This document shows, one piece after another, positions 12,960 to 33,771 of a stretch of 36,736 nt of DNA. Position 1 is the stretch's first letter. The number at the start of each line of letters is the position of its first letter. The translations under genes were made by a program, and so were the position numbers. The notes beneath the pieces are model-generated. The model searched no databases, was not told the DNA's origin, and saw only the letters and a list, made by a program, of their open reading frames with translations. Source of the stretch: Nitrososphaeraceae archaeon (GTDB taxonomy: Archaea > Thermoproteota > Nitrososphaeria > Nitrososphaerales > Nitrososphaeraceae); NCBI GenBank assembly GCA_035250975.1, contig DATFEP010000029.1, positions 1 through 36,736 of the forward strand. Direction: 5' to 3'.

Positions 12960-13674
12960 TTATTGATAGCAAATAGATGAATTTTTGTATTAATAAAAAC
13001 GTTACTTTCAAAATAAATATTTTTTAATTTTCTAGCCTTTAATGGATAATTGATTATAATTAAAGGGAGTATGTTATATTATTACTGACTCAGTAATGAA
13101 TCATAGTAGATAAAATGAAATTTTCTAAGTTGAAAGAGAAAAAAAAAGACGAACGGTTATAACAAATAAAAATATTAAATAACAAAAAACAAGTAAAATT
13201 TGTGCCATAATACTAAATACATTATTTCTAAAAAATTATTAGGCTATATGCACCAGAAAAAAAATAATCTCATGTACAAAGAATAGTTGTTATGTACTCT
13301 CACTCTAACAATAAGATTTTTTGGGAATTTCGTCGGAGTAAAGATAAATGATTGTATTATGAGATATAAAGGAACTAAAATCATTTGGTAAAGATATTAC
13401 AAATTAAAATCATGTTTATTCTTTATAAAATGAAATTTACTAGCAAAAGATCGCTTTTTCAATCGTACCACTGAAATGATGTTCCATTACAAAGTTGCAT
13501 ATTACATTATAAAAGATTACGAACAATTTCAATCCGGAATATTTAATTGCATGTTAGACATCCAACGACAACATGTTCCTGATTAATAATATATGGTTAC
13601 AGAACTACCAGCGAACTTAAATGATCTAAATGTTTTTTAACCTTAGGATCCTAAAATCAAAATAAAATATACAG

Positions 13675-16458
13675 TTGTACAATAAAAAGGTAGAAACATC
13701 TGGTTTATGGCATACGGTTTCTGATCTGGATGTCATTTCAAAGTTGGGTAGTAGCTCAACAGAAGGTCTATCTGATCAAGAAGTAAAAGAAAGACGAAAA
13801 ATTTATGGTGAAAATATTCTACCTGAAATTAAACATCGTTCAAAAATTCGTATTTTATTTTCCCAATTCAAAAATTTACCAATAATATTTTTATTAATTG
13901 CAACTATTCTTGCATATTCACTGGGAAGGTACCTAGAAGCCATATCAATAATCGTGGTAGTCTTCATAACTGCAGGAATTGGTTTTGTTATGGAAAATAG
14001 TTCTGAAAGGACTATTCGATCATTGGCAAAATTAGGATCACCCAAAGCAAAAGTTCTCAGAAATGGAAAGGAATTCCAAATAAATGCCCATGAATTAGTA
14101 GTTGGAGATATAATTGAATTTGAAGCAGGAGATAGAATTCCAGCAGACTGCAGATTAATAGAATCTTTTGGATTGATTATAGATGAATCACCACTTACAG
14201 GTGAGTCTCATGGTATCCTAAAAGATTCTAGTTTAATTTGTTCCAACGATACTGAATTGGTTGAGAGAAAAAATATCTGTTACATGGGAACTATGACCCA
14301 AGAAGGAAGAGGAAAGGCTATTGTTGTAAATATCGGTAAACAAACAGAAATTGGAAGAATTGGATCGCTTTTAGAAAAGGTAACCGGTGGAAAAACACCA
14401 TTTGAAAAAAAAATTGAACAGCTTGGGAAAAAATTAGTTTTAGTCATTCTTTCCATAACATTATTTTATATAGTAATAGGTTATTTTCAACATTTTCCGA
14501 TAGGATCTTTATTTCTAAGTGGCATAGTTCTAGCTATTGCTGCTATTCCTGAGGGCTTGCCTGCTATCGCTACTATTACGCTAGCATTGGGTGTGAAGAG
14601 GATGGCAAAAAAAAATGCCTTGGTTAGAAAACTTGCAAGTGCAGAAACTTTAGGTTCAATAACAATAATATGTACTGATAAAACTGGTACATTAACCCTA
14701 AACGAACCAACTGTAAAACAAATAATTCTAGGTGACGGTACAATTTTACAAACGACAGGGTCCGGCTTTAACCCTTCTGGGAAAATATACAAGGGTATAA
14801 CTCCACCAAATGAGAAAAACATGAATGATTACTTACAAAAGACCGAAGATAAAAATCAATTACTATTATTCCAAACTATAACATTATGCAATAATTCTGA
14901 ATTATATTTTGATGGCATACATTGGAAAATTAATGGTGATACGACAGAAGGAGCTTTGATAGTTGCTTCAGAAAAGATGGGGTTTAAGAAAAGAGATTTA
15001 GAAAAGGAATATCCTCGAATATGGGAAGAACCGTTTGATTCAAAGACTAGGAGAATGATAACAGTGCATAGAAAAAAAAATAAATTATTAATTTGTATAA
15101 AAGGTGCCCCGGAAGAAGTTTTTCCATTATGCAAAAAAATAATGGAAAAAGACGAAGTAATTGTCCTTGATGAAGAAAAAAAGAAGAAATTAAATGAAAA
15201 AATCACAGATATTACTTTACATGGATATAGAAGCTTATTAATAGCCTTCATGGAGGTTGAATCGGATAGTAGTAAAATTAATTACAGTTACAAATTCATT
15301 ATACAGAACGAAGCGATCTTATTAGGACTAGTAGCATTATATGATTCTGTAAGACCAGGAGTTTTGAATGCTATAGATTTTATTAAAAAATCTAAAATCA
15401 AAATAATGATGATAACAGGAGATCATCCATTGACGGCAAAAGCAATAGCAAAGGAACTGGGAATATGGAATAATGATAACAATGTTCCAGACGAATTTAT
15501 GATGATAACAGGTAAAGAATTAGAAAAGTTATCGGTTGATAAATTGGCAGAAAAAGTTGAAAGAATAAGAGTTTTCGCCAGAACTACTCCAGAATATAAA
15601 TTAAAGATCGTTGAAGCACTACAAAGAAAGGGACACATAGTAGCAATGACTGGGGACGGAATAAATGATTCTCCAGCTTTAAAACAAGCAGACATTGGAA
15701 TAGCAATGGGAGAAAAAGGTACTGATGTTGCGAAAGAGTCTGCGGGGTTGATATTGTTAGATGATAATTTCAATACCATAACCCATGCAATCGAATTAGG
15801 TAGATTAATTTTATTCAATATAAGAAAATTTGCAATGTTTCTATTATCGTGTAATTTAAGTGAGATAATGATAATGTTATTGGGGATAGCACTATCACTA
15901 CCATTCCCCTTACTTCCTCTTCAATTACTATTAATGAATATGGTAACAGATACATTCCCAGCGTTAGCCCTTGCTGCAGAAAAGGGAAACAGAGATGAAT
16001 TGATGTTGCGTCTTCCGTCCAAAAATGAACCGGTAATTTCAAGAAAAGAATGGTATTCCATATTTATTCAATCTCTATTTATGACCATAGGCACAATTGG
16101 AATTTTTCTCTGGGCACTAAATACAGATGAAAAAAGAGATGTTGCACAAACTCTAGTTTTTGCAACCATTGGAATGACACAGATCTTGCATGTATTAAAT
16201 TATTCATCGTTACTTCGGAGATTTGTTGATAATAATCATAGAATAAATAAATATCTAATAGGTGCTATTTTACTCTCTTTTGGTATATTATTCATTGCAG
16301 TTGATGTAGAACCTCTTAATAACATCTTTGAGCTACACAGGTTAAATTTGAATGAATGGCTAATTTCATTATTTGTTTCGTCACTTTCTGTTTTTGGTGC
16401 TAGTTTAACAATTGGTATATTTAATAGTAAAATACATTTCTTAAAACGCCTTAAATAA
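13675..16458 (+). CDS. Cation-translocating P-type ATPase, P2A (SERCA/CtpF-like)
   Basis: TGES, IPEGLP, DKTGTLT, KGAPE, TGDH, TGDGIND, M5 SCNLSE and M6 NMVTDTFPALAL. Confidence 0.95.
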   Translation: MYNKKVETSGLWHTVSDLDVISKLGSSSTEGLSDQEVKERRKIYGENILPEIKHRSKIRILFSQFKNLPIIFLLIATILAYSLGRYLEAISIIVVVFITAGIGFVMENSSERTIRSLAKLGSPKAKVLRNGKEFQINAHELVVGDIIEFEAGDRIPADCRLIESFGLIIDESPLTGESHGILKDSSLICSNDTELVERKNICYMGTMTQEGRGKAIVVNIGKQTEIGRIGSLLEKVTGGKTPFEKKIEQLGKKLVLVILSITLFYIVIGYFQHFPIGSLFLSGIVLAIAAIPEGLPAIATITLALGVKRMAKKNALVRKLASAETLGSITIICTDKTGTLTLNEPTVKQIILGDGTILQTTGSGFNPSGKIYKGITPPNEKNMNDYLQKTEDKNQLLLFQTITLCNNSELYFDGIHWKINGDTTEGALIVASEKMGFKKRDLEKEYPRIWEEPFDSKTRRMITVHRKKNKLLICIKGAPEEVFPLCKKIMEKDEVIVLDEEKKKKLNEKITDITLHGYRSLLIAFMEVESDSSKINYSYKFIIQNEAILLGLVALYDSVRPGVLNAIDFIKKSKIKIMMITGDHPLTAKAIAKELGIWNNDNNVPDEFMMITGKELEKLSVDKLAEKVERIRVFARTTPEYKLKIVEALQRKGHIVAMTGDGINDSPALKQADIGIAMGEKGTDVAKESAGLILLDDNFNTITHAIELGRLILFNIRKFAMFLLSCNLSEIMIMLLGIALSLPFPLLPLQLLLMNMVTDTFPALALAAEKGNRDELMLRLPSKNEPVISRKEWYSIFIQSLFMTIGTIGIFLWALNTDEKRDVAQTLVFATIGMTQILHVLNYSSLLRRFVDNNHRINKYLIGAILLSFGILFIAVDVEPLNNIFELHRLNLNEWLISLFVSSLSVFGASLTIGIFNSKIHFLKRLK

Positions 16459-16688
16459 ACAATTGGAATAAAGCAGATTAAACGAAATTAAACAACTAGT
16501 AGACAAATATAATAAAAAAAGAGATGTAAAATATGGCAAGTGATAAATTATAAAAAGTAACAAATCATAGGCACTTAACTGAATACAATTCTTTGTTTAT
16601 GGATTAATTTATGGATGTCTTAATTTTCTATTTGATTAATAACAAAACTCTCAAAAAAAAGAACAAAATATTTGAAGAATAATAGAGT

Positions 16689-17000
16689 CTATCCATAAAT
16701 CCTTGAGATCATACAAGCATTTCTTCCTAGAAAAGTAAGTGAAATCTTATTTTCAATATGAAATTGAATGTACCCTGATTCCTTCTCTAACCACTCAAGA
16801 AATTTATTAAAAGATTCTCTTTGAACACCTTTAAAGGATTTTTTATAAATCTCGTCAATATCAAAGATCGGGATATTGCCTGTTTTCTTAGAATGATAAT
16901 CTCGAGAACAAAGTTCTCGCAAAAGTTTATCTTCCATCCCTCTAATATCCTTGTAAGAATCTTCAAGATTTGTTTTAGCAATATTTTTCATTGTTTTCAC
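16689..17000 (-). CDS. Hypothetical protein, possible winged helix
   Basis: Starts 7 bp after the CBS gene. It has a helical segment followed by LEKESGYI...ISLTFLGR, similar to a wHTH wing. Confidence 0.6.
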   Translation of the reverse strand: MKTMKNIAKTNLEDSYKDIRGMEDKLLRELCSRDYHSKKTGNIPIFDIDEIYKKSFKGVQRESFNKFLEWLEKESGYIQFHIENKISLTFLGRNACMISRIYG

Positions 17001-17007
17001 CTTTCAT

Positions 17008-17442
17008 CTACAGCCCTTCACCTATAGTAGTAGTAACAGTTCTTTTTCTACCTATCGTTACAAATCTTTCGTCCAAGATTTCTTTTATTATATCAGATCT
17101 AGAACAGATTCCAATAATTCTTCCGTCATTTTCAATAACTGGGAGCATGGAAATGCTATTTTTATCCATGATATCAATTATTTTATCAACTTCTGTGTCT
17201 TGGTTTATCACTAAAGGATTAACTGTCATTATTTCATTTGCGGTAGTAATATTTAGGTCCTTACCAGATTTAATTGCACGTAGCAAATCGATAATGGTTA
17301 TAATTCCAATCACCTTTCCATCATTGTCTATGATAGGCATTCCGTTAACTACACCTAAGACAATTCTTGTAGCTATCTCTATAACAGTTACATTTGCCTT
17401 TGCACAAATTATATCTATCGACATAACATCATAGGCTTTCAT
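17008..17442 (-). CDS. Stand-alone CBS-pair protein
   Basis: AYDVMS, GMPIIDNDGKVIGIITIIDL and MLPVIENDGRIIGICSRSDI. Confidence 0.92.
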   Translation of the reverse strand: MKAYDVMSIDIICAKANVTVIEIATRIVLGVVNGMPIIDNDGKVIGIITIIDLLRAIKSGKDLNITTANEIMTVNPLVINQDTEVDKIIDIMDKNSISMLPVIENDGRIIGICSRSDIIKEILDERFVTIGRKRTVTTTIGEGL

Positions 17443-17598
17443 CCTAAACTCTCAAGTCCCACTTTAACCATGTTGATTTTAGACTGTAATATAGCGATGC
17501 CGATGATTTGGGCGTATATTTTTTGTTTTTTGTCAATTTTATTTTTGATAATTTTATCACAATGCTTATGAATGATAGTAAATATTTCTCCGTAACGA

Positions 17599-17619
17599 AT
17601 ACACTGTATTGCTCTGCAT
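17599..17619. promoter_or_regulatory. Tandem candidate operator boxes
   Basis: ATACAcTGTAT (17599-17609) and TTGCTcTGCAT (17609-17619), centres 10 bp apart, upstream of the minus-strand CBS/wHTH unit. Confidence 0.55.
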
Positions 17620-18089
17620 TAATTTGCCCTATTCAACAAATACTTATTTTCATCTTAATTTGAAAGCTAGTAACTTCCGAGTATAAAAAAATAAATCTTT
17701 GCGATTTAACTTTGATTACAAGGTTCCATTGAATTACAAGGCATTGATTGAAGAAGTCGTTGGAAATCCCAATATATGGACATGAATTCCTCGTTTGTAC
17801 CTAATATGTCAACATATGATAAGGAGTTAGCGGTATGTGTTTCATTGTAACGTTTATGATAGGACAATTCATAAGAAACAAAATATCCACTTATTAGTTC
17901 ATTTATTAGAAAGATATAGGGCTTGTCGCACCTGATGTACTTGAGAAAGACCGAAATACAGAATGATGAAAATAATAACAATAATTAATTGTCTACACAT
18001 GTATAGATGCACAATAATTTAGATAATTTAAGAGAGTTAAAAAACTAAACCTAAGAATTTCTAAACCAGTAAAAAATAATATTTACAAT

Positions 18090-18758
18090 CTATTTCCATC
18101 TGTATTTTGACATTATATCTAACACCTGATTATCAGTTACCTCTGAGAAGTTCTGATAAAATTCTCCTACTGCAAAAAAAATCAATGGCGTACTTAAAAT
18201 AATTGTTTTGTCTACTAATTTGGAAATTAAATTTGCAGTATCTCGTGGTGCCACAGGCACTGCCAGAATTATTTTTTTTGTATTTTGATTTCGTAGCCAT
18301 TTTATGGCAGCAAAGGTAGTTGCACCCGTAGCAATTCCGTCATCAACTAAAATGATAGTATTATTTTTTAGATCATAACTATCATCTCCACGGAATTTAT
18401 TCAATCTTATCTCGATTTCTTTAACTTTATTACTTATTTGTTTTTTTATATATTCTTGAGAAATATCTAACTTTTCAATTATGTCTTCGTTAGGAAAAAA
18501 ACTTCCATCATGAGTCACTGCACCGATAGCAAGCTCAGTGTTATCGGGTGAACCTATTTTTTTTGAAATAATGATGTCTAATTTTACATTTAGAGATGTT
18601 GCTATAATGTCACCCAGGACTATACCTCCTCTAGGAATTGCAAGAACCGTAATTGGGTGATCCTTTTTATCAATAATTTTTTTCAATTCATTAACAAGTA
18701 GAACAGCTGCTGCTTCCCGATTTTCGAATATTTTATTGTTTTGACTGATATCAGTCAT
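18090..18758 (-). CDS. Type I phosphoribosyltransferase family protein (Rv0571c/Rv2030c N-domain-like)
   Basis: FENREAAA, VLAIPRGG, KKIGSPDNTELAIGA, PRPP loop LVDDGIATGAT and FFAVGEFYQNF. Start moved to ATG 18758 because the upstream extension overlaps another gene. Confidence 0.9.
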   Translation of the reverse strand: MTDISQNNKIFENREAAAVLLVNELKKIIDKKDHPITVLAIPRGGIVLGDIIATSLNVKLDIIISKKIGSPDNTELAIGAVTHDGSFFPNEDIIEKLDISQEYIKKQISNKVKEIEIRLNKFRGDDSYDLKNNTIILVDDGIATGATTFAAIKWLRNQNTKKIILAVPVAPRDTANLISKLVDKTIILSTPLIFFAVGEFYQNFSEVTDNQVLDIMSKYRWK

Positions 18759-18837
18759 TATTTTAAAACTCAAATTTAAGCGTAATGTATAATACTTATT
18801 TAAAGAAACGTTATCTTCTATCTGATAAAGAATTTTT

Positions 18838-18993
18838 TTAATATTCCCTTTCTGCCACTTGTTCGTGACAGTACATACATAAACCACAAATTTTACAGGT
18901 TTGTGATATTGTATTTCCACATTTGGGACAAACACTTTCAGGATCGTGAACAGTCACTTCATTAAATTCATGTTGAGAACGGATCCGCGTCAT
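18838..18993 (-). CDS. Small CPxCG-type zinc-finger protein, 51 aa, three CxxC motifs (not in ORF track)
   Basis: MTRIRSQHEFNEVTVHDPESVCPKCGNTISQTCKICGLCMYCHEQVAEREY*. A TATA-like TTATATA lies at 19029-19023. Confidence 0.75.
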   Translation of the reverse strand: MTRIRSQHEFNEVTVHDPESVCPKCGNTISQTCKICGLCMYCHEQVAEREY

Positions 18994-19263
18994 AATTTAG
19001 TGATGTAGTATAACTTAGGCGATATATAACTCTTAAAAAGATTGTTCATTTATGATATCACTCAAAATTTCACATATTAGATCAATTCAAGATATAAATC
19101 GAGTCAAACGTATTTTTATAGAATTTGGTTAGGAGACGTATTAACATTAAAGCATAGAATCATTAAAAGTTCTTAAAAGAAAGATGAGTTAGCAAAAACA
19201 TTATCAATAATCAAATTTCTTAGATATATTAAACTTTTTATCTTTTTATATGAATACTTTTTT

Positions 19264-20796
19264 ATGGACTTGGATCTAAAGAAGAAAAGAGAAGAACATC
19301 TTTTTGCAGGAGGAAAGGAAAAATTAGAAGATCGTCGAAAAAAAGGAAAATTGACTGCGTTTGATAGAATAAATTCTATTTTTGATCACGGTACCTTTAC
19401 AGAAATTGATCCATTTGTAACGCATGAATGCAGTGACTTTGATATGGACAAGAAAAAAATTCTAGGAGATGGCGTAGTTACAGGCTATGGAATGATTGAC
19501 GATAGATTGATGTATGTTTTTTCCCAAGATTTTACAACATTTGGTGGATCCTTAGGATTAGCATATTCAAGAAAGATTTGTAAAATAATGGATCTTGCAT
19601 TGAAACAAGGAGTCCCTGTAATAGGAATAAATGATTCAGGAGGGGCACGAATTCAAGAAGGAGTAGATAGTTTAGCAGGATATGCAAATATTTTTCATAG
19701 AAATGTGAAAACATCTGGAGTAGTTCCTCAAATCTCATTGATAATGGGCCCTTGTGCTGGAGGTGCGGTCTATTCGCCTGCCATAACTGATTTTATTATA
19801 ATGACGAAATCATCATTCATGTTTGTAACGGGACCCGATGTTGTCAAAGAAGTTACAAACGAGAATGTGACCTTTGAAGAGCTGGGAGGATCAGGTGTTC
19901 ATAATGTAAAAAGTGGAGTAGCCCATTTCCTTGCGGAGGGTGAACAAGATTGTTTCAAGATTTTGAGAACTCTTCTGTCTTTTCTACCTTCTAATAATCT
20001 AGAGAATCCACCTAAAATTGACTCTAAAGACGATCCGTCAAGAAGAGTTGAAGAACTTGATTCAATTCTTCCTTCTAGTCCAAATATACCCTACAATATG
20101 GAAACTGTAATTAAAAAAATTGTAGATAACGGGTTTTTCCTAGAGGTGCAAAAACATTGGTCACGCAATATAATAATTGGATTTGCTCGACTTGACGGAA
20201 ATCCTGTTGGAATCGTTGCTAACAATCCAGAAGTTTTAGCTGGCGTTCTGGACATTAATTCATGCGATAAAGGAACTCGTTTTGTACGTTTTTGTGACTG
20301 TTTTAATATTCCTCTTTTAGCTTTAGTAGACGTACCAGGTTTTTTACCGGGGACTGATCAAGAATGGGGAGGCATAATTCGTCATGGTTCTAAACTCTTA
20401 TATGCTTTCTCTGAGGCTACAGTACCCAGATTTACGGTAATTACAAGAAAAGCCTATGGAGGAGCATATTGTGTCATGAATAGTAAACATATAGGTGCAG
20501 ATTATAACTTTGCTTGGCCTACAGCTGAAATAGCAGTGATGGGAGCTGAAGGGGCAAGTAGTATAATATGGAAGAAGGAAATAGCAGAGTCTCAAAATCC
20601 AGTTGATAAAAAATCGGAATTAGTAGAGAAATACAGAATGAAATTTAGTAATCCGTATATAGCTGCCTCAAAAGGATTTTTGGATGATGTCATAGAACCA
20701 AATGAAACAAGATACAGACTAGTATCAGCGTTCAGGGCCATTTATAGAAAAAGGGAGGAAAGATCAAAAAGAAAACATGGCAATATTCCTGTTTAA
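19264..20796 (+). CDS. pccB: Acyl-CoA carboxylase carboxyltransferase subunit (PccB-like)
   Basis: DSGGARIQEG, GPCAGGAVYSPAITDF, DVPGFLPG, RKAYGGAY and C-terminal KHGNIPV. Confidence 0.93.
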   Translation: MDLDLKKKREEHLFAGGKEKLEDRRKKGKLTAFDRINSIFDHGTFTEIDPFVTHECSDFDMDKKKILGDGVVTGYGMIDDRLMYVFSQDFTTFGGSLGLAYSRKICKIMDLALKQGVPVIGINDSGGARIQEGVDSLAGYANIFHRNVKTSGVVPQISLIMGPCAGGAVYSPAITDFIIMTKSSFMFVTGPDVVKEVTNENVTFEELGGSGVHNVKSGVAHFLAEGEQDCFKILRTLLSFLPSNNLENPPKIDSKDDPSRRVEELDSILPSSPNIPYNMETVIKKIVDNGFFLEVQKHWSRNIIIGFARLDGNPVGIVANNPEVLAGVLDINSCDKGTRFVRFCDCFNIPLLALVDVPGFLPGTDQEWGGIIRHGSKLLYAFSEATVPRFTVITRKAYGGAYCVMNSKHIGADYNFAWPTAEIAVMGAEGASSIIWKKEIAESQNPVDKKSELVEKYRMKFSNPYIAASKGFLDDVIEPNETRYRLVSAFRAIYRKREERSKRKHGNIPV

Positions 20797-21051
20797 AATT
20801 TTATGCTCCAAAGATAGTCAATGGCCGTATAATTCCTTTTTTGTTTTCTTAATGTTCAGTAAAGGAAATAATAGATCCAGATATACAGAAAAGTGCAAAA
20901 TGGTAAAATATATGGTAAAGATTATAAATTCTAATAAATACAATAGAAAAAAAGCCTTAATTTATCTAAATTCTTCCATGTTTATCAAATCACAAAAATG
21001 AATTAAACGTTATTAACTATTTTATATTATTTCTTAAAATGTGGTTTCGAC

Positions 21052-22530
21052 ATGGTAAAGATTCTAATAGCAAATAGAGGAGAAATAGCTATCAGGATAG
21101 CTAAAACCTGCAAAAGAATAGGAATAGAACCATACGGTGTTTTTTCAGATGCAGATAAAGAGTCTTTACATATAAAATATTGCGATGATGCAGTTAACCT
21201 AGGAGGTTCTATGCCGAATGAAAATTATCTTTGTATTGATAAAGTGATTGATGCTGCTAAAAAACTAGACTGCGACATGATTCACCCAGGTTATGGATTT
21301 CTTTCAGAAAATCATAATTTTGTCAAGGCATGTAAAGAAGAAGGCATAGTTTTCATAGGACCTTCATTTAAAGCAATGACGCTTTCAGGAGACAAAGTAG
21401 AAGCTAGAAAGATTGCATCAAAATTAGCTGAGACGGTTAAAGGAGAAGAAGTAATGGATGAGGAACAGGCATCTAGAGTAGCAGAAAGAATAGGATATCC
21501 AGTAATCATTAAAGCAGTAGAGGGAGGAGGTGGCAGAGGTCTAAGGATAGCAGGATCTCAAGAAGAGTTAATTGATCTCTTTTTATTGTCCAAAAACGAA
21601 TCAAAAATAAGTTTTGGTTCAGATAGACTGTATCTCGAAAAATATTTAGCAAATCCTAAGCATATAGAAGTTCAAATACTCGCAGACTATAATAACACAG
21701 TTCATCTTGGAGAAAGAGAATGTTCTATTCAAAGAAGATATCAAAAACTGATTGAGGAAACACCCTCTCCTACTTTAACAAAAGAGACTAGAGATGAAAT
21801 GACAGAGACGGCTATAAAGATAATTAATGAAATTGGATATGATAATGCAGGCACGGTAGAATTTCTCTACAAAGAAGGAAGATTTTATTTTATGGAAATT
21901 AATGCTAGAATTCAAGTAGAACACCCCATAACTGAGGAGGTAACAGGAATAGACATTGTTGAACAACAAATTCGCATAGCTACTGGTGATGGACTTACCA
22001 TAAAGCAAGAGGATATAAACCCCAAAGGACATGCTATAGAATGCAGAATTAACGCTGAAAATCCTATAACTTTTGCTCCTTATCCAGGTAAAATTGATCA
22101 ATTTATTCCACCTATGGGAGAGGGTATAAGAGTTGATACAGCATTATATGAAGGATATTCCATTCCTGTGTTCTATGATTCTCTTATTGCTAAATTAGTA
22201 TGTCTTGGCCATTGCAGGGATGAAGCAATAGATAGGATGAAAAAATCTCTACTGTCCTTCAGAATATCAGGAATTCCGTCGACCATTTCTTTTCACATAT
22301 CTGCCATGAACGATAACGATTTTTTAACTGGTAAATATGATACATCATTCATCAACAAAATGAAACACTTTTCACCAAGAAATGGTGAAATAGCTGCTGC
22401 AATATTCTCAATGCTACCTAAGAAAATTCAATTCATAAAAACTCAAGAAATCCGAGATGCTTGGATACAACGAAAATTGGATTTGAATGAGACGAGTTAT
22501 TTAAATGATAACTGGAGATGGTCAACGTAA
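21052..22530 (+). CDS. accC: Biotin carboxylase subunit
   Basis: ANRGEIA, HPGYGFLSEN, GGGGRG, ECSIQRRYQKLIEE and EINARIQVEHP. Confidence 0.93.
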   Translation: MVKILIANRGEIAIRIAKTCKRIGIEPYGVFSDADKESLHIKYCDDAVNLGGSMPNENYLCIDKVIDAAKKLDCDMIHPGYGFLSENHNFVKACKEEGIVFIGPSFKAMTLSGDKVEARKIASKLAETVKGEEVMDEEQASRVAERIGYPVIIKAVEGGGGRGLRIAGSQEELIDLFLLSKNESKISFGSDRLYLEKYLANPKHIEVQILADYNNTVHLGERECSIQRRYQKLIEETPSPTLTKETRDEMTETAIKIINEIGYDNAGTVEFLYKEGRFYFMEINARIQVEHPITEEVTGIDIVEQQIRIATGDGLTIKQEDINPKGHAIECRINAENPITFAPYPGKIDQFIPPMGEGIRVDTALYEGYSIPVFYDSLIAKLVCLGHCRDEAIDRMKKSLLSFRISGIPSTISFHISAMNDNDFLTGKYDTSFINKMKHFSPRNGEIAAAIFSMLPKKIQFIKTQEIRDAWIQRKLDLNETSYLNDNWRWST

Positions 22531-22962
22531 TTGAGGGTAAAAGTTAACGATAATGAATATGATATCGAAATTATCGGTGAAAAGGTTATAGTTAATAATA
22601 TTAATTTTGATTTAAAAAGATATAGAGATAAAATTACATTAGGTAATGATACATTTTATTTGGACTTTGTAGAAGAAACTGAACCTTCATTAATGATAAT
22701 TAATGGAGTAAGTTATGTTGTATCAAAAGATTTTTCAAATTACGGGTTGGAAAAAGAAATACGCGCTCCAATAAATGGAAAAATCACAGATCTATTGGTT
22801 AATAATAATGATCTTATAGAAAAGGATCAAACTATTTTGGTTCTTGAGGCTATGAAAATGGAGAATCAAATAAAATCTCATTTAAAAGGAGTAATTGAGA
22901 AAATATATGTATCCAAGGACCAATTAGTAAAAAAAGGAGATATCCTTGTGAAATTTGGATGA
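22531..22962 (+). CDS. accB: Biotin carboxyl carrier protein
   Basis: EAMKMEN biotinylation motif. Its TTG start directly abuts the biotin carboxylase stop. Confidence 0.9.
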   Translation: MRVKVNDNEYDIEIIGEKVIVNNINFDLKRYRDKITLGNDTFYLDFVEETEPSLMIINGVSYVVSKDFSNYGLEKEIRAPINGKITDLLVNNNDLIEKDQTILVLEAMKMENQIKSHLKGVIEKIYVSKDQLVKKGDILVKFG

Positions 22963-26592: not shown

Positions 26593-27180
26593 TTACCGGA
26601 TTTTGACTACTTTTAGTTTCACGCCCTTTCTCAGATCCTGAATGATCTTTTCTATTTGTTTAACTTGAACCAGATAATTGCTTTTCATATAATCTAGACC
26701 AGACTTGTGTTTTTGAAAAGAAGGAGCCGCAATTCCATTCTCTGCTATTATAATATCATATCCAGTGAGGAACGCGTCATACACGGAATGTTTAACACAT
26801 ATATCGGTATGAATTCCTGTAAAGATTATTGATTCCACACCTTTTCCTTTGTAAAGTGAATCAAGTACCTTTGCCAAATTAGTTCTATGAAATGCACTGT
26901 AACTATTTTTCAAAATTATATGGTCATTATCTTGTGGTTTTAATTCATTTATAACTTCCGATCCTTTTGTATCTTTCATTGCATGAACTCCCCATATTTG
27001 TAATTCCCTGTCAGATCGAATATGAGAATCATTGCAATACACTATAGGAATATTATGTTGCCTAGCAAAATCAAGCAATAATTTGATGTTAGGTATTATT
27101 GTTTGTACTTTAGAAAATTTTAGTTTTCCATAAACAAAATCATTTAACATATCTAGCACCAAGATTACTATTCTTTTCAA
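26593..27180 (-). CDS. pncA: Isochorismatase-family cysteine hydrolase, probable nicotinamidase
   Basis: DMLNDF, metal ligands DSH and WGVH, catalytic K (KNSYSAF) and C (GIHTDICV). It lies directly downstream of pncB. Confidence 0.8.
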   Translation of the reverse strand: MKRIVILVLDMLNDFVYGKLKFSKVQTIIPNIKLLLDFARQHNIPIVYCNDSHIRSDRELQIWGVHAMKDTKGSEVINELKPQDNDHIILKNSYSAFHRTNLAKVLDSLYKGKGVESIIFTGIHTDICVKHSVYDAFLTGYDIIIAENGIAAPSFQKHKSGLDYMKSNYLVQVKQIEKIIQDLRKGVKLKVVKIR

Positions 27181-27276: not shown

Positions 27277-28665
27277 TTAGTTGAAAGATTCAATTGAATT
27301 TTTTAATTCCTTACTTAGGTATACTGGAAAGGTCTTTAATTCAGGATCAAGTCTTTTAAATTTTCTAGGTAATATAGACATCTGATATTCGTAATATTTC
27401 TTAATTTCTGGAATTGTAGGAAGATTTATCATTATATTACCATTTTTAATAAATTGTTTCAACAGAGGTATTCCATAAGCAATTTTTTCATATTCAAGAG
27501 CTAAGATATCTTTATAAAATTTGTCGTTTTTAATAATTCTAAAAATTTGTTTGGGTCCTGGAAAAGAGATCTTGTCTAATGATTTCTTCATTTTATATAT
27601 TATTTCATATTTTTGTTTATCCTGATCCGAGTATTTTTTGATAGCAACTAATTTATAAACACCGTTCAAGGCGGGATCGTCTCTAGATGTTACCAATTCA
27701 GTACCTACACCAAAGGAATCAATGGGAATTTTTTTCTTTACCAATTTTTTGATTGTATATTCATTAAGATCTCCACTCACCATTATTTTTGTTCCTTTGT
27801 AACCGGATTTGTCTAGAATTTTCCTAATCTTCCTACACAAATAAAATAAATCTCCACTGTCAATTCGTATACCACCACACTTTACTCGATGTTTGATAAT
27901 TTTTTTTATTGCGTTTATCGAATCATAAGTATCTATTAATAAAAAACTATCCGGAAAGATAGTCACAAACTTTTTGAATGCCTCTATTTCCTCTTCAAAA
28001 CTCATTATATATGAATGTGCCATGGTCCCGGCTGCTGGAATTCCATACCGAAACGAAGCAAGAGTATTTGAGGTGCTTTTACATCCTGCGATATAACTAG
28101 CTCTGCTTGCAAATAATGCTGCATAAGGGCTATGTGCTCTTCGAAACCCGAATTCTATCACAGTTTTGTCCCCAGCTGAATTAACTATTCGTGATGCTTT
28201 TGAAGCAATTAATGTTTGAAAATTCATCATAGAAAGAACATATGTTTCAAATAATTGAGCCTGAATAATAGGAGCTTCGATTCTTAAAAACGGCTCATTT
28301 GGAAAGAGAATTGTACCTTCAGGTACTGCCCATAAGTCTCCAGTAAATTTAAGATTTGCCAAATAATCTAAGAAGTTCTTATCGTTTTTAAATGAATTAT
28401 GAGTTTTAAGAAAATCAATCTGTGTACGAGTAAATTTGAAATTCATGAGGAAAGATACTATTTGTTCCAATCCGCATACTACCAAATAATTTCTGTTATT
28501 TGGAAGTTTTCTAACGTACATTTCAAATTGCCCAATAGTATCATTCATACCTGAATTGAAATATGCTGATGCCATAGTTAATTCATAAAAATCCGTTGCT
28601 AAAGCCATATTATTTTCGTAATTGCATGATGAAATGGTCACGGGATATCTATAATAGGAATCCAC
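27277..28665 (-). CDS. pncB: Nicotinate phosphoribosyltransferase
   Basis: TDFYELTM, EFGFRRAH, GTMAHSY, LIDTYD, IRIDSGD, SGDLNE, FGVGT and GVYKLV. Confidence 0.95.
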   Translation of the reverse strand: MDSYYRYPVTISSCNYENNMALATDFYELTMASAYFNSGMNDTIGQFEMYVRKLPNNRNYLVVCGLEQIVSFLMNFKFTRTQIDFLKTHNSFKNDKNFLDYLANLKFTGDLWAVPEGTILFPNEPFLRIEAPIIQAQLFETYVLSMMNFQTLIASKASRIVNSAGDKTVIEFGFRRAHSPYAALFASRASYIAGCKSTSNTLASFRYGIPAAGTMAHSYIMSFEEEIEAFKKFVTIFPDSFLLIDTYDSINAIKKIIKHRVKCGGIRIDSGDLFYLCRKIRKILDKSGYKGTKIMVSGDLNEYTIKKLVKKKIPIDSFGVGTELVTSRDDPALNGVYKLVAIKKYSDQDKQKYEIIYKMKKSLDKISFPGPKQIFRIIKNDKFYKDILALEYEKIAYGIPLLKQFIKNGNIMINLPTIPEIKKYYEYQMSILPRKFKRLDPELKTFPVYLSKELKNSIESFN

Positions 28666-28764: not shown

Positions 28765-29877
28765 TCATCGGACATGAAGAATTTTGTCTAATGCTTTAAC
28801 TATATCAGTTTTAGTAACTATTCCGACCAGCTTATTGTTGGAATTAACAACCGGTAATCCACTAATTCCATTTCTTGCCATTATTTTTGCTGCGTCCGCG
28901 AGATCGGTTTTGTCTGATACAGTTATAGGCTCTTTTATCATAACATCTTTTGCTACCAACATCGAGGTGACCCTTGTCGGAAGATATCGCTGTTCAAGAT
29001 ATTTTGAAGATACTTTTTTAGAAAGTATTGAAGGTGATTTGTCACGTCGGAACATAAAACTGACTGGTAATAGGTCGCGAATAGTCACTATACCAAGCGG
29101 TTTATTATTTTCTACTACAATAAGCCTAGATATTTTATGGATATTCATTAATAAAAGTATTATGTGAATATTTTCGTATAGATCGACAGTGTGAACTTTT
29201 TTTGTCATCCAATCTTTTGAAATATATTTATTCATATAATGATATGCATACAACTCTACCAAATCGCTCTTGGTAATTATTCCCTTTTGGATTCCTTCGT
29301 CATCAAGGAGTACCAATGAGCTTATACTATTTTTTAACATTAAAGTCGTACAATTTTTTATTTCTGAATTTTGATTAATGGTAACTAGATTTTTTTTCAT
29401 TACCTCTTTTACCATAATTTCGTAAAGTTTTTTTTCGGTAAAAGAGTCATAAAGATACTTGGAAATGTCCTTTTCAGTAATAATACCAATTGGTCTCTGA
29501 TCTTTAGACACAACTATTCTGCTAATGTTATATCTGATCATAAAATTTCTTGCATCCAAGAGAGTATTATTTGGTTTTAACGAAATTATTTCTCTGCTAA
29601 CATCGTAAGCATCTAGTAAAAAATTGTCGTAATGGAGTGATTTTTTCTTCAAGTAAAGATTCCCCTTAGCTGTAGCGATATACTCCTCGCTTGGTCCAAA
29701 ATATTGTAATAATCCTCGATTTACCAATTCTGCAGTGTATCTTCTAACTTGTTGATGAGAAATATTTAATTCTTGTCGAATTTTTTTCTTTGTTAAAGGT
29801 TCGGTAGCTAATCCTAAGATTTTAATAAAAATTCTTTCTTGTCCACCTAAATTTATCGGTATCTTGATTATTTCATC
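28765..29877 (-). CDS. Winged-helix plus four CBS domain protein, putative adenylate-sensing regulator (start codon unresolved)
   Basis: The frame is open for 50 codons upstream of the called TTG 29727: DEIIKIPINLGGQERIFIKILGLATEPLTKKKIRQELNISHQQVRRYTAE-LVNRGLLQYFGPSEEYIATAKGNLYL. This is an archaeal wHTH pattern and is followed by four CBS repeats. Confidence 0.8.
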   Translation of the reverse strand, partial: DEIIKIPINLGGQERIFIKILGLATEPLTKKKIRQELNISHQQVRRYTAELVNRGLLQYFGPSEEYIATAKGNLYLKKKSLHYDNFLLDAYDVSREIISLKPNNTLLDARNFMIRYNISRIVVSKDQRPIGIITEKDISKYLYDSFTEKKLYEIMVKEVMKKNLVTINQNSEIKNCTTLMLKNSISSLVLLDDEGIQKGIITKSDLVELYAYHYMNKYISKDWMTKKVHTVDLYENIHIILLLMNIHKISRLIVVENNKPLGIVTIRDLLPVSFMFRRDKSPSILSKKVSSKYLEQRYLPTRVTSMLVAKDVMIKEPITVSDKTDLADAAKIMARNGISGLPVVNSNNKLVGIVTKTDIVKALDKILHVR

Positions 29878-29918
29878 TCACTGCATATTGTTAGAAAATT
29901 TATTATAAAAAGAATATG

Positions 29919-29940
29919 GTTCAATGATATTGCAGTGCAA
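29919..29940. promoter_or_regulatory. Tandem candidate operator boxes upstream of the wHTH-CBS gene
   Basis: GTTCAaTGATA (29919-29929) and the perfect TTGCAgTGCAA (29930-29940). The minus-strand TATA is TTTATAA at 29909-29903. Confidence 0.7.
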
Positions 29941-30019
29941 ATTTAAAAAACTCATTAAATATTCTTTACATCTTACCTGAGAAAAATTAAAGATCGGTAA
30001 AAAAATAATGGTAAAAAAT

Positions 30020-30538
30020 TTATTTTACATCTATTTTGACTGATTCTGTTTGCTCTGGCTTGGTGGGTACCTTTTTTGGAATAGAAATGTGTAAAACGCC
30101 ATTTTTCATTTCAGCTTCGATATTTTTAGGTATTATTTCTTCAGGAAGGGGAAGTTCTCTTTGAAATGATTTATACGATCTTTCGTTATAGAGATAATTC
30201 TTTCTTTTCTCTTCAGTTTTTTCAGTTTGCTCTCCAGATACTAGAATCGAATTTTTTGTCGCATTGATTTGGATTTTTTCCTTGGCGATACCCGGGGTTT
30301 CCAGTGTCAATTCATATTTATCTCCTTTGTCTATAAGATCACATAAAGGCATTCTCACTTCTAGTTCTTCATATTTAGGAAATCCAATTGTTGGAAATCT
30401 CCAATCCCAAAGTGAGGGAAATCGTGGTAAAAATGCACTCTCAATATCCCTTCTAAAATTTTCAAAGATATCATCCATTCGAGCAGGGTAACGATTATCT
30501 TTTATTTTCTTTTTCTCTATTGAATTTGGTTTATCCAT
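30020..30538 (-). CDS. Small heat-shock protein (Hsp20/alpha-crystallin)
   Basis: PLCDLIDKGDKYELTLETPGIAKEKI, ERSYKSFQRELPLPEEI and AEMKNGVLHISIPK, with a C-terminal IDV motif. Confidence 0.95.
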   Translation of the reverse strand: MDKPNSIEKKKIKDNRYPARMDDIFENFRRDIESAFLPRFPSLWDWRFPTIGFPKYEELEVRMPLCDLIDKGDKYELTLETPGIAKEKIQINATKNSILVSGEQTEKTEEKRKNYLYNERSYKSFQRELPLPEEIIPKNIEAEMKNGVLHISIPKKVPTKPEQTESVKIDVK

Positions 30539-30575
30539 ATTTGAAAGGAGTAGTCAATTTATTTAATTACTAAGC

Positions 30576-30598
30576 ATTCAGTGTATTGCAATGCAATA
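30576..30598. promoter_or_regulatory. Tandem candidate operator boxes upstream of hsp20
   Basis: ATTCAgTGTAT (30576-30586) and the perfect 15-bp palindrome TATTGCAaTGCAATA (30584-30598). The minus-strand TATA is TTAAATA at 30566-30560. Confidence 0.75.
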
Positions 30599-30860: not shown

Positions 30861-31931
30861 TTAAAATGATAATGTTTTCATAACAATATCCCAAGGAGTC
30901 ACTATTTTATTTCTGTTTTGCAAAATTAAATATGGATGTCTAGGATCCAACAAAAGTTCTGCAGCTTGTCTTACAGTAGTATCATCTTTTACCTCAGAGA
31001 TATTAGAGATAGTAAGATTTTGTTTAATTTTTTTTTGTCCAATGATATCGTAATCAATTTTTTTTCTAGTTTCTAGTGTCTCTATGGGGTCACGTTTATT
31101 TTTCACGACCATTCTTGTAGCAGGAGATAATAGAAATTCAAGGATATTCCTATCATTTATAATACCGACAACTTTCGATCGTTTGTCCATTACCCCTAAG
31201 TTACGAATATTTTTTCTAAACATAACAGATAGAACATTTTGTAGCACATCATCTTGCTTCACTGATATCAAGTCCGAAGCAACGTCTTTTGCTGGCAAAT
31301 TTTTTATTTTTTCAATATCGATATCAAGAATGCTATTACTAGCATCTTTGGTATTTTCATATTTTTTTATTCCGGTAAATAATTTTAAAAAATCTCTAAC
31401 AGTAATCGACGCCACTGCTTTGTGATATTTTGGATTATTATTGTAGACAGTTTCTACTATAGGAATAAAGGCAAATTTTGTTTTTTTAAAGACTTCTAAA
31501 ACATTCCTAATGGTTGAATCTAGCTCTATAATTAGATTTTCAGTTATTTTTTCCATTATCTCAGATGCTTTTCTAACATATAGAGATTCGGGATAGTAGG
31601 ATACAGGTAGGTATGAATTGGGATTGATAATACATTGAATAATTTGTTTACTACCTATCCTACCTAAAACACTTTGAATGGTAATTTGTTGTTCTCCTCT
31701 TTGTGCGATTCCGTTTTGTTCTACTTGTTTTTGCTTTTTAATTTGATTTTCTAAAACCACTATCAGTCCATCTATGTATATCTGCGGACCTATTGCAAGA
31801 AATGTAGCAAGTTGAACTAAATTTGAGTTTAGATAAGTAAACGAAATTGGACGTTTGGTTAGATGAGGAAATGTCTCAATAATGGAACCATCTAAACTAA
31901 AATGGGAGATAGTCATGTGACCAAATTTCAT
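30861..31931 (-). CDS. Multi-CBS domain protein
   Basis: KASEIMEK...FAFIPIV...ITVRDFL, IRNLGVMDKRSKVVGIINDRNIL and IVTPWDIV. It overlaps the upstream CBS gene, and the start may be the MTISH ATG at 31916. Confidence 0.85.
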   Translation of the reverse strand: MKFGHMTISHFSLDGSIIETFPHLTKRPISFTYLNSNLVQLATFLAIGPQIYIDGLIVVLENQIKKQKQVEQNGIAQRGEQQITIQSVLGRIGSKQIIQCIINPNSYLPVSYYPESLYVRKASEIMEKITENLIIELDSTIRNVLEVFKKTKFAFIPIVETVYNNNPKYHKAVASITVRDFLKLFTGIKKYENTKDASNSILDIDIEKIKNLPAKDVASDLISVKQDDVLQNVLSVMFRKNIRNLGVMDKRSKVVGIINDRNILEFLLSPATRMVVKNKRDPIETLETRKKIDYDIIGQKKIKQNLTISNISEVKDDTTVRQAAELLLDPRHPYLILQNRNKIVTPWDIVMKTLSF

Positions 31932-32442
31932 TTAGCTTGTTGATAAACGATTCATCGTAAAGAGGGATTTGATTCTCAATTAAAAGGGGCGATTGATTGA
32001 TTGTCTGAATGAGATATCTAACAATATCAGTAAAGGAAATTATTCCTATTATATGATCGTTTGAATCTAAGATCGGAAGTCTTTTAATATTTTTCAAATT
32101 CATATACTCTAACGCATCTTTTATAGAGTTAGTGGAGTTAATTGTTATTAACGGTTTACTCATTATTTCACCTGCTAGGCTGAATTTTAAAATGGAACCA
32201 GAACCTAAAAATCTGACAATATCCCTTTCAGTAATTATTCCGGCAGTATACAATAGATTATCTTCTTTTCTCTCAAAAGAAATATTTTCAGATTCATTCA
32301 ATAATTGCTCCTCTACAATTATTATACTTCCTATTTTCTTTTCATACATTTTTTGGCAGATATTTTGAATATTTTGATCATCAGATGCTATTTCAACATT
32401 TTTTGCCATAATTGCAGTGACAGAAGTTTGATCCATACTCAT
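31897..32442 (-). CDS. CBS-pair protein
   Basis: KIGSIIIV...GIITERDIV and MSKPLITI...IKRLPILDSNDHIIGIISFTDIV. Confidence 0.92.
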   Translation of the reverse strand: MSMDQTSVTAIMAKNVEIASDDQNIQNICQKMYEKKIGSIIIVEEQLLNESENISFERKEDNLLYTAGIITERDIVRFLGSGSILKFSLAGEIMSKPLITINSTNSIKDALEYMNLKNIKRLPILDSNDHIIGIISFTDIVRYLIQTINQSPLLIENQIPLYDESFINKLNEIWSHDYLPF

Positions 32443-32482: not shown

Positions 32483-32503
32483 TTTCATTGCATTTAACTG
32501 CAA
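32483..32503. promoter_or_regulatory. Tandem candidate operator boxes upstream of the CBS-CBS unit
   Basis: TTTCAtTGCAT (32483-32493) and TTTAAcTGCAA (32493-32503). The minus-strand TATA is TTATATA at 32471-32465. Confidence 0.65.
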
Positions 32504-32728
32504 TATATTAAATTAGTTATTCCATATTTCTTGTGTTAAGGTTAACAGTAGCATCCTATGAAAAAGAATTTTGGAGAAAAAGAATTTTGGAGTTTAAATG
32601 TTATGTTTTGCTGCTATCTAATAATTTGAAACCAGTTTCATCCATTAACCACATATTGAGAAAAAGGTATACAACAAATCTGTTAAGTACACTATCTTTT
32701 TAAATTGCCAATTAATATCTTGTCATAT

Positions 32729-33334
32729 ATGTCAGATTCTTACCCTTCCCATTATTTACAAAAATCAAAGAAAAAAAAATCCAGATGCATAACCTTTAGG
32801 CTGGAGGCAGGAATAGTTGAAGAATTAACAAAGGAATCTGAACAAAAAGAAATCTCATTAAATGTTTTGGTTAATCAAATCTTGAGAAGATATTCTGAAT
32901 GGGATAGATATGAAAATAAACTAGGGATAATTCCTGTACCAAGAGCAATAATGACAGCATTAATAGAAAAGAGCTTACAAATAGGTAAAGAAGCTGGAAT
33001 AAAAGACCTAGAGACGCACAGAAATCTACTAATTAAAGAGGCTGCAACAGTTGCTTTTGAATCGCTAAGAGAATCAGTATTATTTATGAAAAATCAATTT
33101 AATTTATTTAGTGTTTTATCTATTTTGGAAGAATACATGAAAGTATGTGGAATAAATTCAGAACATAAATTTGATTCAGGAAGACGTCATATCTTTACAC
33201 TTCAACATGATATGGGTGAAAATTGGTCATTGTTTTCAAAAGAACTACTTGAGAAGATTTTTTTTGAATTAGCCCAGTGTAAAGTTAAAATTACTTATAC
33301 TCATAGTACTTTAATAGCAGAGGTTTCATTGTAA
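32729..33334 (+). CDS. Thaumarchaeal RHH-domain protein with C-terminal alpha/beta domain, putative regulator
   Basis: ITFRLEAGIVEELTKESEQKEISLNVLVNQILRRYSEWD is an RHH pattern, and QHDMGENWSLF is a motif I recall from this family. ATG 32729 fits the TATA TTTTAAA at about 32698-32704. Confidence 0.8.
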   Translation: MSDSYPSHYLQKSKKKKSRCITFRLEAGIVEELTKESEQKEISLNVLVNQILRRYSEWDRYENKLGIIPVPRAIMTALIEKSLQIGKEAGIKDLETHRNLLIKEAATVAFESLRESVLFMKNQFNLFSVLSILEEYMKVCGINSEHKFDSGRRHIFTLQHDMGENWSLFSKELLEKIFFELAQCKVKITYTHSTLIAEVSL

Positions 33335-33349
33335 ATTATAAAAAAAATC

Positions 33350-33360
33350 TTGCATTGCAA
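33350..33360. promoter_or_regulatory. Perfect candidate operator box
   Basis: TTGCAtTGCAA centred 18 bp upstream of TTAAATA (33370-33376), before the SnoaL-like gene. Confidence 0.7.
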
Positions 33361-33405: not shown

Positions 33406-33771
33406 ATGAGACAAGACCATATCGATATTGTTAAAAATTTTTTTTCATTAATAGAACAAAGAGATATTGATGGTATAGTCGATTTGTTTGATGAACATTG
33501 CATAGTTTATGAACCATTCAGTAAAGAAAATGGTTTACAAAAAAATAATTTGAAACCATTTTTCGAAGTTCTTGTTAATACTAACAACGATATAACAAGA
33601 AAAGTTAGTTTTCTGGACAAGCATAATAAACTTAATGAGATTGAAACTTTGGTTACTTTTAACAAAGACGGAATGTTACGTGCAAAATTTATTTTCAATA
33701 TAAAACATTATTCAGATGATTTTGGAATAGAATTGAATAAAATCGATACTTTACATATAGACTTCATTTGA
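33406..33771 (+). CDS. NTF2/SnoaL-like protein
   Basis: IVKNFFSLIEQRDIDGIVDLFDEHCIVYEP N-terminal pattern. Confidence 0.8.
   Translation: MRQDHIDIVKNFFSLIEQRDIDGIVDLFDEHCIVYEPFSKENGLQKNNLKPFFEVLVNTNNDITRKVSFLDKHNKLNEIETLVTFNKDGMLRAKFIFNIKHYSDDFGIELNKIDTLHIDFI

Follow-up and report, generated by a model that had tools for sequence, protein, structure and literature searches.

Among bacterial regulators, CcpN of Bacillus subtilis, which we take to be the protein of PDB entry 3fv6 (titled YqzB), responds to ATP/ADP and carries two CBS domains together with a helix-turn-helix (HTH) of a different type from the one described here. In ammonia-oxidising archaea, to our knowledge, a DNA site or signal has been established for only a few transcription factors. 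In Pyrococcus yayanosii, HhpR is described as a transcriptional activator with four CBS domains, its site lying upstream of a palindrome and TATA box, and HTH-CBS combinations are mentioned for Thermococcales in the same excerpted account (PMC11705074). Proteins of the Sso10a type are presented as architectural chromatin proteins in the part of the literature drawn on here (PMC4941522). PDB entry 9zni holds a Methanosarcina ribosome with SriC and SriD, and the portion of the accompanying article used here reports that SriC homologs have diversified in Nitrososphaerales, a 'SriC-short' group being set aside as possibly diverged in function (PMC13454478). In Table 1 of PMC6563490, the class arCOG00608 ranks with the 20 arCOGs found most often in integrated mobile elements of Thaumarchaeota. 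Here we describe a gene within a 36,736-nucleotide (nt) stretch of DNA (the window) from the genome of a soil ammonia-oxidising archaeon of the Nitrososphaeraceae (G000; 2,488,707 bases, 94.6% complete) that joins a winged helix-turn-helix (wHTH) domain to four CBS domains and shares a TTGCA/TGCAA inverted repeat in its promoter with neighbouring members of a small stress-gene cluster.

In the open reading frame (ORF) listing of the window, this gene is placed on the minus strand with its start at TTG 29727, giving a product of 320 amino acids (aa). Upstream of that codon, the same frame is open for 50 more codons, to 29877, for a total of 370. TTG 29727 is codon 51 of this longer frame, so the listed start falls inside the recognition helix and the extra 50 codons carry helices 1–3. 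The initial annotation had claimed that the listing begins mid-domain and that the open frame upstream completes a wHTH fused to four CBS repeats, and it had proposed modelling of the extension and a search of other genomes as checks; its claims on this point are borne out by the results that follow. The frame cannot be followed over the whole of 28765..29886 as it had supposed, given that ATG 29886 is followed by CAG and then by an in-frame TGA (29880-29878). The features of the gene product are as follows.

28765..29871, minus strand: wHTH-CBS gene with four CBS domains, 368 aa from ATA 29871, the first start codon when all table-11 starts are allowed
29638..29847, minus strand: winged helix-turn-helix domain, HTH_45/Sso10a-like, frame residues 11-80
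29719..29757, minus strand: recognition helix, residues 41-53
28768..29595, minus strand: four tandem CBS domains, residues 95-370, a disc like those of MJ1225, AMPK gamma and the Sri proteins
28963..29064, minus strand: low-confidence basic loop between CBS3 and CBS4, residues 272-305, with a predicted local distance difference test score (pLDDT) below 50

Taken as a whole, the best explanation of the locus is an adenylate-responsive wHTH-CBS regulator that acts on local boxes and is translated from an ATA start, and on the sequence comparisons and models we consider its chances evenly balanced. The protein would consist of an HTH_45/Sso10a-type winged helix, a flexible linker and a four-CBS disc of the MJ1225/AMPK-gamma/Sri type. 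It would be a DNA-binding regulator with its activity set by an adenosine-type nucleotide held in the CBS disc, and it would act on TTGCA/TGCAA inverted repeats situated 9–20 nt upstream of the TATA boxes of four promoters, namely those of its own gene, hsp20, a two-CBS operon and a gene for a 121-aa protein. A position just upstream of the TATA box is usual for archaeal activator sites. In the clade to which the window belongs, a TGA stands at codon 3 after the ancestral ATG, which would itself be too near the TATA box to be transcribed; translation would probably start instead at the near-cognate ATA 29871, possibly after a tiny leaderless AUG-AAA-UAA frame, an arrangement that would hold the regulator scarce. 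Three points are new: the conserved element of four promoters, the lack of a canonical start codon and the relationship to hibernation factors.

The N-terminal domain was examined by structure prediction. Residues 1-91, modelled by AlphaFold with 30 aligned sequences, gave a pLDDT of 85.7, with helices at 11-23, 30-37 and 41-53, wing strands at 57-60 and 65-68 and a long helix at 70-89. The order of elements (helix, strand, helix, helix, two-strand wing and long C-terminal helix) is that of the HTH_45/Sso10a fold. The full protein, modelled with 16 aligned sequences, reached a pLDDT of 76.8. Foldseek returned Sso10a with template modelling (TM) scores of 0.73/0.74 along with MarR-family regulators, all at a probability of 1.00 but with E values of only ~2e-3 to 1e-2, and a wHTH profile compared with the sequences of the PDB found Sso10a at E=2.8e-8. 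Pfam matches over residues 15-78, all below their cut-offs, were led by HVO_A0261_N (2.2e-5) and HTH_45 (8.8e-5), followed by MarR_2 and TrmB; one ortholog, P0005, passes the HTH_45 cut-off with 26.9 bits. An exhaustive search with the 95-residue N-terminus yielded 32 representatives, and Pfam analysis of 26 of them identified 18 as proteins of 74-170 aa matching HTH_45 at E<=0.001, 16 above the cut-off. Conservation within the domain is highest along the recognition helix, where R45, R46, T48, A49 and E50 are invariant in 16 aligned sequences. A second kind of sensor partner was also observed, in that P0009 (225 aa) has the same type of wHTH fused to a universal stress protein (Usp) domain and not to CBS domains.

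The C-terminal part of the protein is recognised by the Pfam CBS family (PF00571) in four stretches (E=1.6e-55; 185.7 bits against a cut-off of 24). The motif G-h-h-T-x-x-D, which binds ribose-phosphate, is kept in all four repeats across the 16 aligned sequences, and G131/T134/D137, T202/D205, G262/D268 and G352/T355/D358 are invariant. Structural matches to the predicted disc include SriD (TM 0.82), MJ1225 (0.81), the AMP-bound SSO3205 (0.78), SriC (0.74), AMPK gamma (~0.7) and also Dri. By sequence and predicted structure, the disc is related both to adenylate sensors and to recently described ribosome-hibernation factors.

This kinship to the Sri proteins, and the presence of a locus (L101) that keeps the CBS part without a wHTH, make ribosome hibernation a live rival or a second function. 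As a rival, the disc would be a Sri/Dri-like hibernation factor that docks on the small ribosomal subunit through its basic loop under energy limitation, with the wHTH in an accessory or moonlighting role, which we consider improbable. The best solved match in the CBS profile search was indeed 9zni_6, from the complex of SriC, SriD and the ribosome (1.1e-35, aligned end to end over profile positions 94-359). In our own mapping, the disordered loop 272-305 aligns with the stretch of 9zni_6 that holds the ribosome-binding loop of SriC as located in the text of PMC13454478; the two loops are about equal in length and, counted from the alignment, carry net charges of +6 and +5, respectively. No HPF/RaiA domain was found in the 94.6%-complete genome, in which no other match covers all four CBS repeats, and the diversification of SriC homologs in Nitrososphaerales mentioned above is of the same tendency. 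However, MJ1225, SSO3205 and AMPK gamma fit the structure equally (TM 0.81 for MJ1225 vs 0.74 for SriC), and in the single-sequence search MJ1225 leads at 3.2e-22, slightly better than 9zni_6 at 3.5e-21. Moreover, the 'SriC-short' group of Nitrososphaerales is the one that PMC13454478 itself, in the portion used, sets aside. There is no clear Sri match among the neighbouring CBS genes, no SriD partner was identified nearby, and conservation in the N-terminal domain is strongest in the recognition helix.

The start of translation is the most unusual feature of the gene, and the elements that bear on it are given below.

29902..29909, minus strand: TATA-like box TTTATAAT, beginning 23 nt before ATG 29886 and 38 nt before ATA 29871
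29878..29886, minus strand: ATG CAG TGA, in which the in-frame ATG (29886-29884) is separated from the gene by the codon-3 stop, TGA 29880-29878
29868..29876, minus strand: out-of-frame mini-ORF ATG AAA TAA, conserved in the clade, with a stop codon that overlaps ATA 29871-29869

There is no in-frame ATG, GTG or TTG between 29877 and 29727, that is, before codon 51. The arrangement of ATG CAG TGA with an open wHTH frame downstream was found in all eight sequences of the clade, which are those of G000, G016 and G019, the metagenome contigs L071-L073, L103 (78% identity) and a soil DNA contig of run X3; the latter has a change at 29877 and none listed at 29878-29880. ATA 29871, codon 3 of the frame, is kept across the clade sequences and aligns with the ATG start of seven orthologs of 56% identity. 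The G012 ortholog lacks the TGA and carries an ATG in frame at the corresponding position. In G017, comparison of the printed sequences shows one base fewer than in G012 between the ATG and a shared A-rich stretch, which places the ATG out of frame, and the NCBI start of its protein (P0004) is a TTG near codon 12-13.

In 582 genes of the genome, the distribution of TATA-like hexamers has its maximum at 32-28 nt ahead of the ATG, which indicates many leaderless mRNAs. The TATA words of hsp20 and of the two-CBS gene, both at -28, lie within this peak, while that of ATG 29886 is at -23. The TATA word is too near to this ATG, which speaks against it as the start. The transcript probably has its 5' end ~5-9 nt beyond the A of ATG 29886, at the TGA or immediately after it, and the first AUG of such a transcript is that of the out-of-frame AUG AAA UAA (29876-29868). 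A contig from an RNA library spans 29478-29857; it fits a transcript that includes wHTH codons but is not proof of one. The sequencing-run data consist of contigs, so transcript 5' ends are not readable from them, and a literature search found no paper on Nitrososphaera transcription start sites.

Initiation in the clade is probably non-canonical, as there is no ATG, GTG or TTG before codon 51 and yet the wHTH codons are under purifying selection (see below). For initiation at ATA 29871, or re-initiation after the mini-ORF, we see on sequence grounds as much for as against. Some other non-canonical route, read-through included, is rather unlikely, and to the same degree so is the possibility that no wHTH product is made in the clade. 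A number of candidate mechanisms were considered and rejected. A programmed frameshift from the out-of-frame ATG would require a shift in a different direction in this clade than in G017. Reading of the TGA as an amino acid is contradicted by the same gene terminating on TGA, where all orthologs end. Read-through from ATG 29886 is unlikely, this ATG being 5-9 nt closer to the TATA box than the leaderless peak of the genome, and a selected internal TTG start at codon 76 is at odds with the TTA found there in two of seven sequences. A database protein, P0001, starts with 'MQW' and reads the codon-3 TGA as W, and its contig (L072), which is short and AT-rich, has ATG CAG TGA; since P0001 also reads the terminal TGA as W, it is evidently a table-4 gene call with a false start and a false C-terminal tail, and it is not taken as evidence. 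It is the biology of the gene, and no artefact of ORF listing, that hides the wHTH. Gene callers either truncate this domain or translate the TGA as tryptophan, and the wHTH-CBS fusion is consequently under-reported in the clade. For genome annotation, too, the missing canonical start matters.

The same observations could mean that the wHTH is dying in this clade, the codon-3 TGA having killed the start and left a CBS-only product from TTG codon 51 or 76, or no product at all. We regard this as unlikely. It would account for the absence of ATG, GTG and TTG before codon 51, and in the alignment the CBS-only proteins P0040 and P0041 begin at the position of TTG codon 76. The wHTH can indeed be lost: in L101 (80% identity), a remnant with stop codons is left, and a 294-aa CBS-only gene that begins at the linker is kept next to the nicotinate phosphoribosyltransferase (NAPRT) and isochorismatase genes, with no hsp20 or boxes in 5.9 kb. 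The retention of the CBS part there implies that the disc is useful without DNA binding. The ratio of non-synonymous to synonymous change (pN/pS) also takes higher values over codons 1-50 (0.21-0.65) than over the remainder of the gene (0.14-0.16). However, the frame is intact in 8/8 clade sequences, including L103 at 78% identity, which retains both ATG CAG TGA and an intact wHTH frame, and the TTG of codon 76 is not constant, as noted. Among six sequences of the TGA clade, no fewer than 11 non-synonymous and 10 synonymous changes were counted in the first 50 codons, whereas neutrality predicts 79% non-synonymous (binomial P=0.005), and the recognition-helix codons 43-53 have synonymous changes only. 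The comparison with L103 gives pN/pS values of 0.58 for 50 codons, which is not significant (P=0.15), and 0.34 for 75 codons. As judged from these comparisons, the wHTH codons are under purifying selection within the TGA clade.

Full-length orthologs that include the N-terminus were found in 13 of the 41 genomes searched, all of one Nitrososphaeraceae genus, and a search with the N-terminus only found it in 13 of 25 genomes of that genus, one copy in each. A word-based protein search returned 1135 proteins at E<=1e-20, including many from Nitrososphaeraceae metagenomes. Among the 120 of these that were listed, ~60 align over at least 92% of the query, with identities of 42-93%, and the named relatives from Nitrososphaeraceae among the matches listed are 'CBS domain-containing protein' or 'CBS domain-containing protein/predicted transcriptional regulator' (JGI).

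The proposed regulator would act through the inverted repeats, of which there are four at the locus, three with a one-base spacer (N1) and one with a six-base spacer (N6).

29930..29940, no strand: box 1 TTGCAGTGCAA, 43 nt before ATG 29886 and 20 nt upstream of the TATA box
30586..30596, no strand: box 2 TTGCAATGCAA, 47 nt before the hsp20 ATG and 19 nt upstream of a TATA word
32488..32503, no strand: variant site TTGCA-N6-TGCAA, 45 nt before the ATG (32442) of the two-CBS gene and 17 nt upstream of a TATA word
33350..33360, no strand: box 3 TTGCATTGCAA, 45 nt before the ATG (33406) of the 121-aa gene and 9 nt upstream of a TATA word

The genes that these sites precede, and those that adjoin them, are the following.

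30020..30538, minus strand: Hsp20/alpha-crystallin gene, directly upstream of the wHTH-CBS gene
31897..32442, minus strand: two-CBS protein, 181 aa, overlapping the next CBS gene (30861-31931)
32705..33334, plus strand: 209-aa protein with a weakly supported CopG/ribbon-helix-helix (RHH) N-terminus, the rival box binder
33406..33771, plus strand: 121-aa protein with weak SnoaL/NTF2-like matches, always beside the ortholog of the 209-aa gene
27277..28665, minus strand: NAPRT gene, directly downstream of the wHTH-CBS gene
26593-27180: isochorismatase-family gene, next after the NAPRT gene

The genome has three copies of the exact box TTGCANTGCAA, every one of them in the window and within 3.4 kb; by our own estimate, the chance of three random sites being so close is ~6e-6. 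The count in itself is not enriched genome-wide (3 vs a Markov expectation of 3.5-5.1), and counts across the genus, at 0-6 per genome with or without the gene, are uninformative. The reversed pattern used as a control for these counts contains CG dinucleotides and is a poor control. Conservation of the sites was assessed in four promoters of five genomes (G000, G016, G019, G017 and G012), in which the hsp20, wHTH-CBS, NAPRT and isochorismatase genes are found together. Of these 20 cells, 12 have the exact site, seven have it with one mismatch, a level at which ~2-4 sites also occur per 10-12 kb of background, and one, the wHTH-CBS promoter of G012, has none. Both half-sites of the N6 site are unchanged among G000, G016, G019 and G017, whose spacers differ. 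Related genes in G015 and G027 have no exact sites. In L103, an exact box is found 43 nt before ATG CAG TGA although the neighbours are different (SDR and EF-2), and no hsp20, NAPRT or RHH gene occurs within 5.8 kb. A direct tandem duplication of ~44 bp was observed just upstream of the box region in L002 (G019), which is absent in G000 and G016.

The initial annotation had spoken of a pair of boxes in the gene's own promoter. There is a single exact box (29930-29940), and no second with up to two mismatches was found in 29880-30580. It had also named the wHTH-CBS protein as the best local candidate for binding the boxes. This is sustained in part, by the box in its own promoter, which is present also in L103; its claim to be the best is not, as a CopG/RHH-like gene fits the comparative data equally. 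On sequence evidence, we would name the wHTH-CBS protein as the binder only tentatively, and the 209-aa CopG-like protein is a possible though somewhat doubtful one.

In this alternative, which is doubtful to a like extent, the boxes would be operators of the 209-aa protein (32705-33334) or of another factor, and the wHTH-CBS gene would be one of the targets. Box 3 begins 16 nt past the stop codon of the 209-aa gene and in front of the 121-aa gene, and orthologs of these two genes are adjacent in seven genomes (G000, G016, G019, G017, G012, G015 and G027). In G027, which has no wHTH-CBS fusion, a one-mismatch TGCA-N6-TGCA has the 121-aa gene on one side and, on the other, a separate wHTH gene that looks ArsR-like. 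TGCA is a palindrome of 4 bp, which would suit the two-fold beta-ribbon of an RHH dimer, and the RHH family is present in 24/24 other genomes of the genus. The assignment of the 209-aa protein to this family is weak, however, with CopG_antitoxin at E=0.032 and an Atlas lead to RHH_1 clusters at 0.94, and neither it nor the 121-aa protein has a Pfam family at E<=0.01. Its own promoter, of leaderless type, is without a box; in L103 the box accompanies the wHTH-CBS gene in the absence of any RHH gene nearby, while G015 has the pair of 209-aa and 121-aa genes but no box.

A number of observations weigh against the wHTH-CBS protein as the regulator of this locus. The seven orthologs of 56% identity, together with G015, share almost the same recognition helix, and their own promoters are without an N1 site within one mismatch. 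The N6 site was not found in L048-L050, the loci scanned for that spacing. Three of the sites have half-site centres separated by 6 bp and the fourth by 11 bp, and a single rigid wHTH dimer should not readily accommodate the two spacings. Exact boxes per genome show no relation to the gene, averaging 2.6 in 13 genomes with it and 2.0 in 12 without it, and the five genomes in which the sites were compared all have the CopG-like gene, within the cluster or close to it. With regard to the protein itself, its HTH_45 (PF14947) score of 22.9 bits is less than the Pfam cut-off of 25.5, the gene is without a canonical start codon and its ATA start is a proposed one, the closest solved relative of its CBS part in the profile search is the ribosome-bound 9zni_6, and L101 has dispensed with the wHTH.

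Outside the cluster, 17 boxes were sampled, and 11/17 are without an ATG-led ORF of at least 60 aa within 20-95 nt. In G016 and G019 (G016:C3:422444 and G019:C31:30155; L131 and L122), a further exact box is present 48-51 nt upstream of an orthologous gene whose product has a signal-peptide-like N-terminus, and tblastn found no homolog of it in the G000 assembly. On contig C81 of G000 (18590-18600), there is an intergenic one-mismatch box, TTGCAATGCAC, which is followed by a TGAACC word, as is box 1, and has no clear downstream gene. Other spacings are also frequent in G000, where TTGCA-N5-TGCAA occurs 12 times, N8 nine times and N11 ten times against a rough expectation of ~5 per spacing, and other regulators may bind there. 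A second Hsp20 paralog (43-46% identity; L028-L037, L040, L041 and L043), present in 12 genomes of the genus, has in its promoter a strongly conserved CACA-N3-TGTG palindrome just upstream of a AAATAAATA box, and this element is present irrespective of the wHTH-CBS gene.

The rest of the window is of core chromosomal metabolism. The region 11346-22962 encodes a Usp, MgtC, a P-type ATPase, a further two-CBS protein, a phosphoribosyltransferase and the three subunits of a biotin carboxylase/carboxyltransferase. In L055, from a genome of another genus (G027), there are CopG-like and NTF2-like genes, a separate 143-aa wHTH that looks ArsR-like, a Usp-like-looking ORF and a four-CBS gene, so that neighbouring but separate genes there correspond to parts that the window has fused or side by side.

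A combination of the readings is conceivable, in which the one gene makes two products from a sensor akin to hibernation factors. A scarce full-length regulator, translated through the AUA or by re-initiation behind the two-codon leaderless mini-ORF, would activate hsp20 and the CBS genes through the TTGCA/TGCAA sites as the adenylate charge falls, and the CBS disc, by itself or within the whole protein, would dock on the ribosome as SriC does. As it is set out, this is very improbable. If true, it would define the first transcription factor regulon in soil ammonia-oxidising archaea and provide a direct link between ribosome hibernation and transcription. Whichever protein binds the boxes, the locus is compact and testable, comprising four neighbouring promoters, conserved inverted repeats at a fixed distance from the start codon and two locally encoded candidate binders.

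When compared to known systems, the adenylate-responsive wHTH-CBS regulator proposed here combines features that have been described separately. Its closest solved N-terminal relative, by both profile and fold, is Sso10a (PDB 1r7j, 1xsx) of the HTH_45 type, with which it shares the long helix after the wing; the Sso10a proteins are stand-alone and of 95 aa, whereas the window domain is fused to a sensor module. MJ1225, SSO3205 and AMPK gamma have the same four-CBS disc, which in the window protein is a predicted fold, and are without a DNA-binding domain. The Sri/Dri proteins (PDB 9zni, 9zng, 9znf and 9e6q) likewise share four tandem CBS domains, with the basic loop at the aligned position, and the profile match of 1.1e-35 and TM scores of 0.74-0.82 to Sri chains place the CBS part of the window protein among their homologs. 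They differ in having no wHTH and in being located in sri operons, as far as the portion of PMC13454478 used here describes them. HhpR is also without an HTH domain in the text available from PMC11705074, and its upstream site is unrelated to the boxes of the window.

The name of the class arCOG00608 describes the same architecture as that of the window protein, an agreement that extends to name and architecture only. On that basis, the wHTH-4xCBS architecture is already catalogued in a published class. Unlike the arCOG00608 members of mobile elements, the window copy adjoins core metabolic genes, and no tRNA gene was found in the window. No member of the class with a tested function was found in the literature. 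The reading as a ligand-sensing regulator is a reasonable one, in line with this class.

The similarity to PDB 3fv6 is confined to the CBS part (E=1.1e-6) and does not extend over the full length, and by sequence the window protein, with four CBS domains and an HTH_45 winged helix, is outside the CcpN family. The likeness to CcpN is one of design, as CcpN is generally understood, in that an HTH is fused to CBS domains which sense adenine nucleotides. By this analogy, the wHTH-CBS protein probably works like CcpN.

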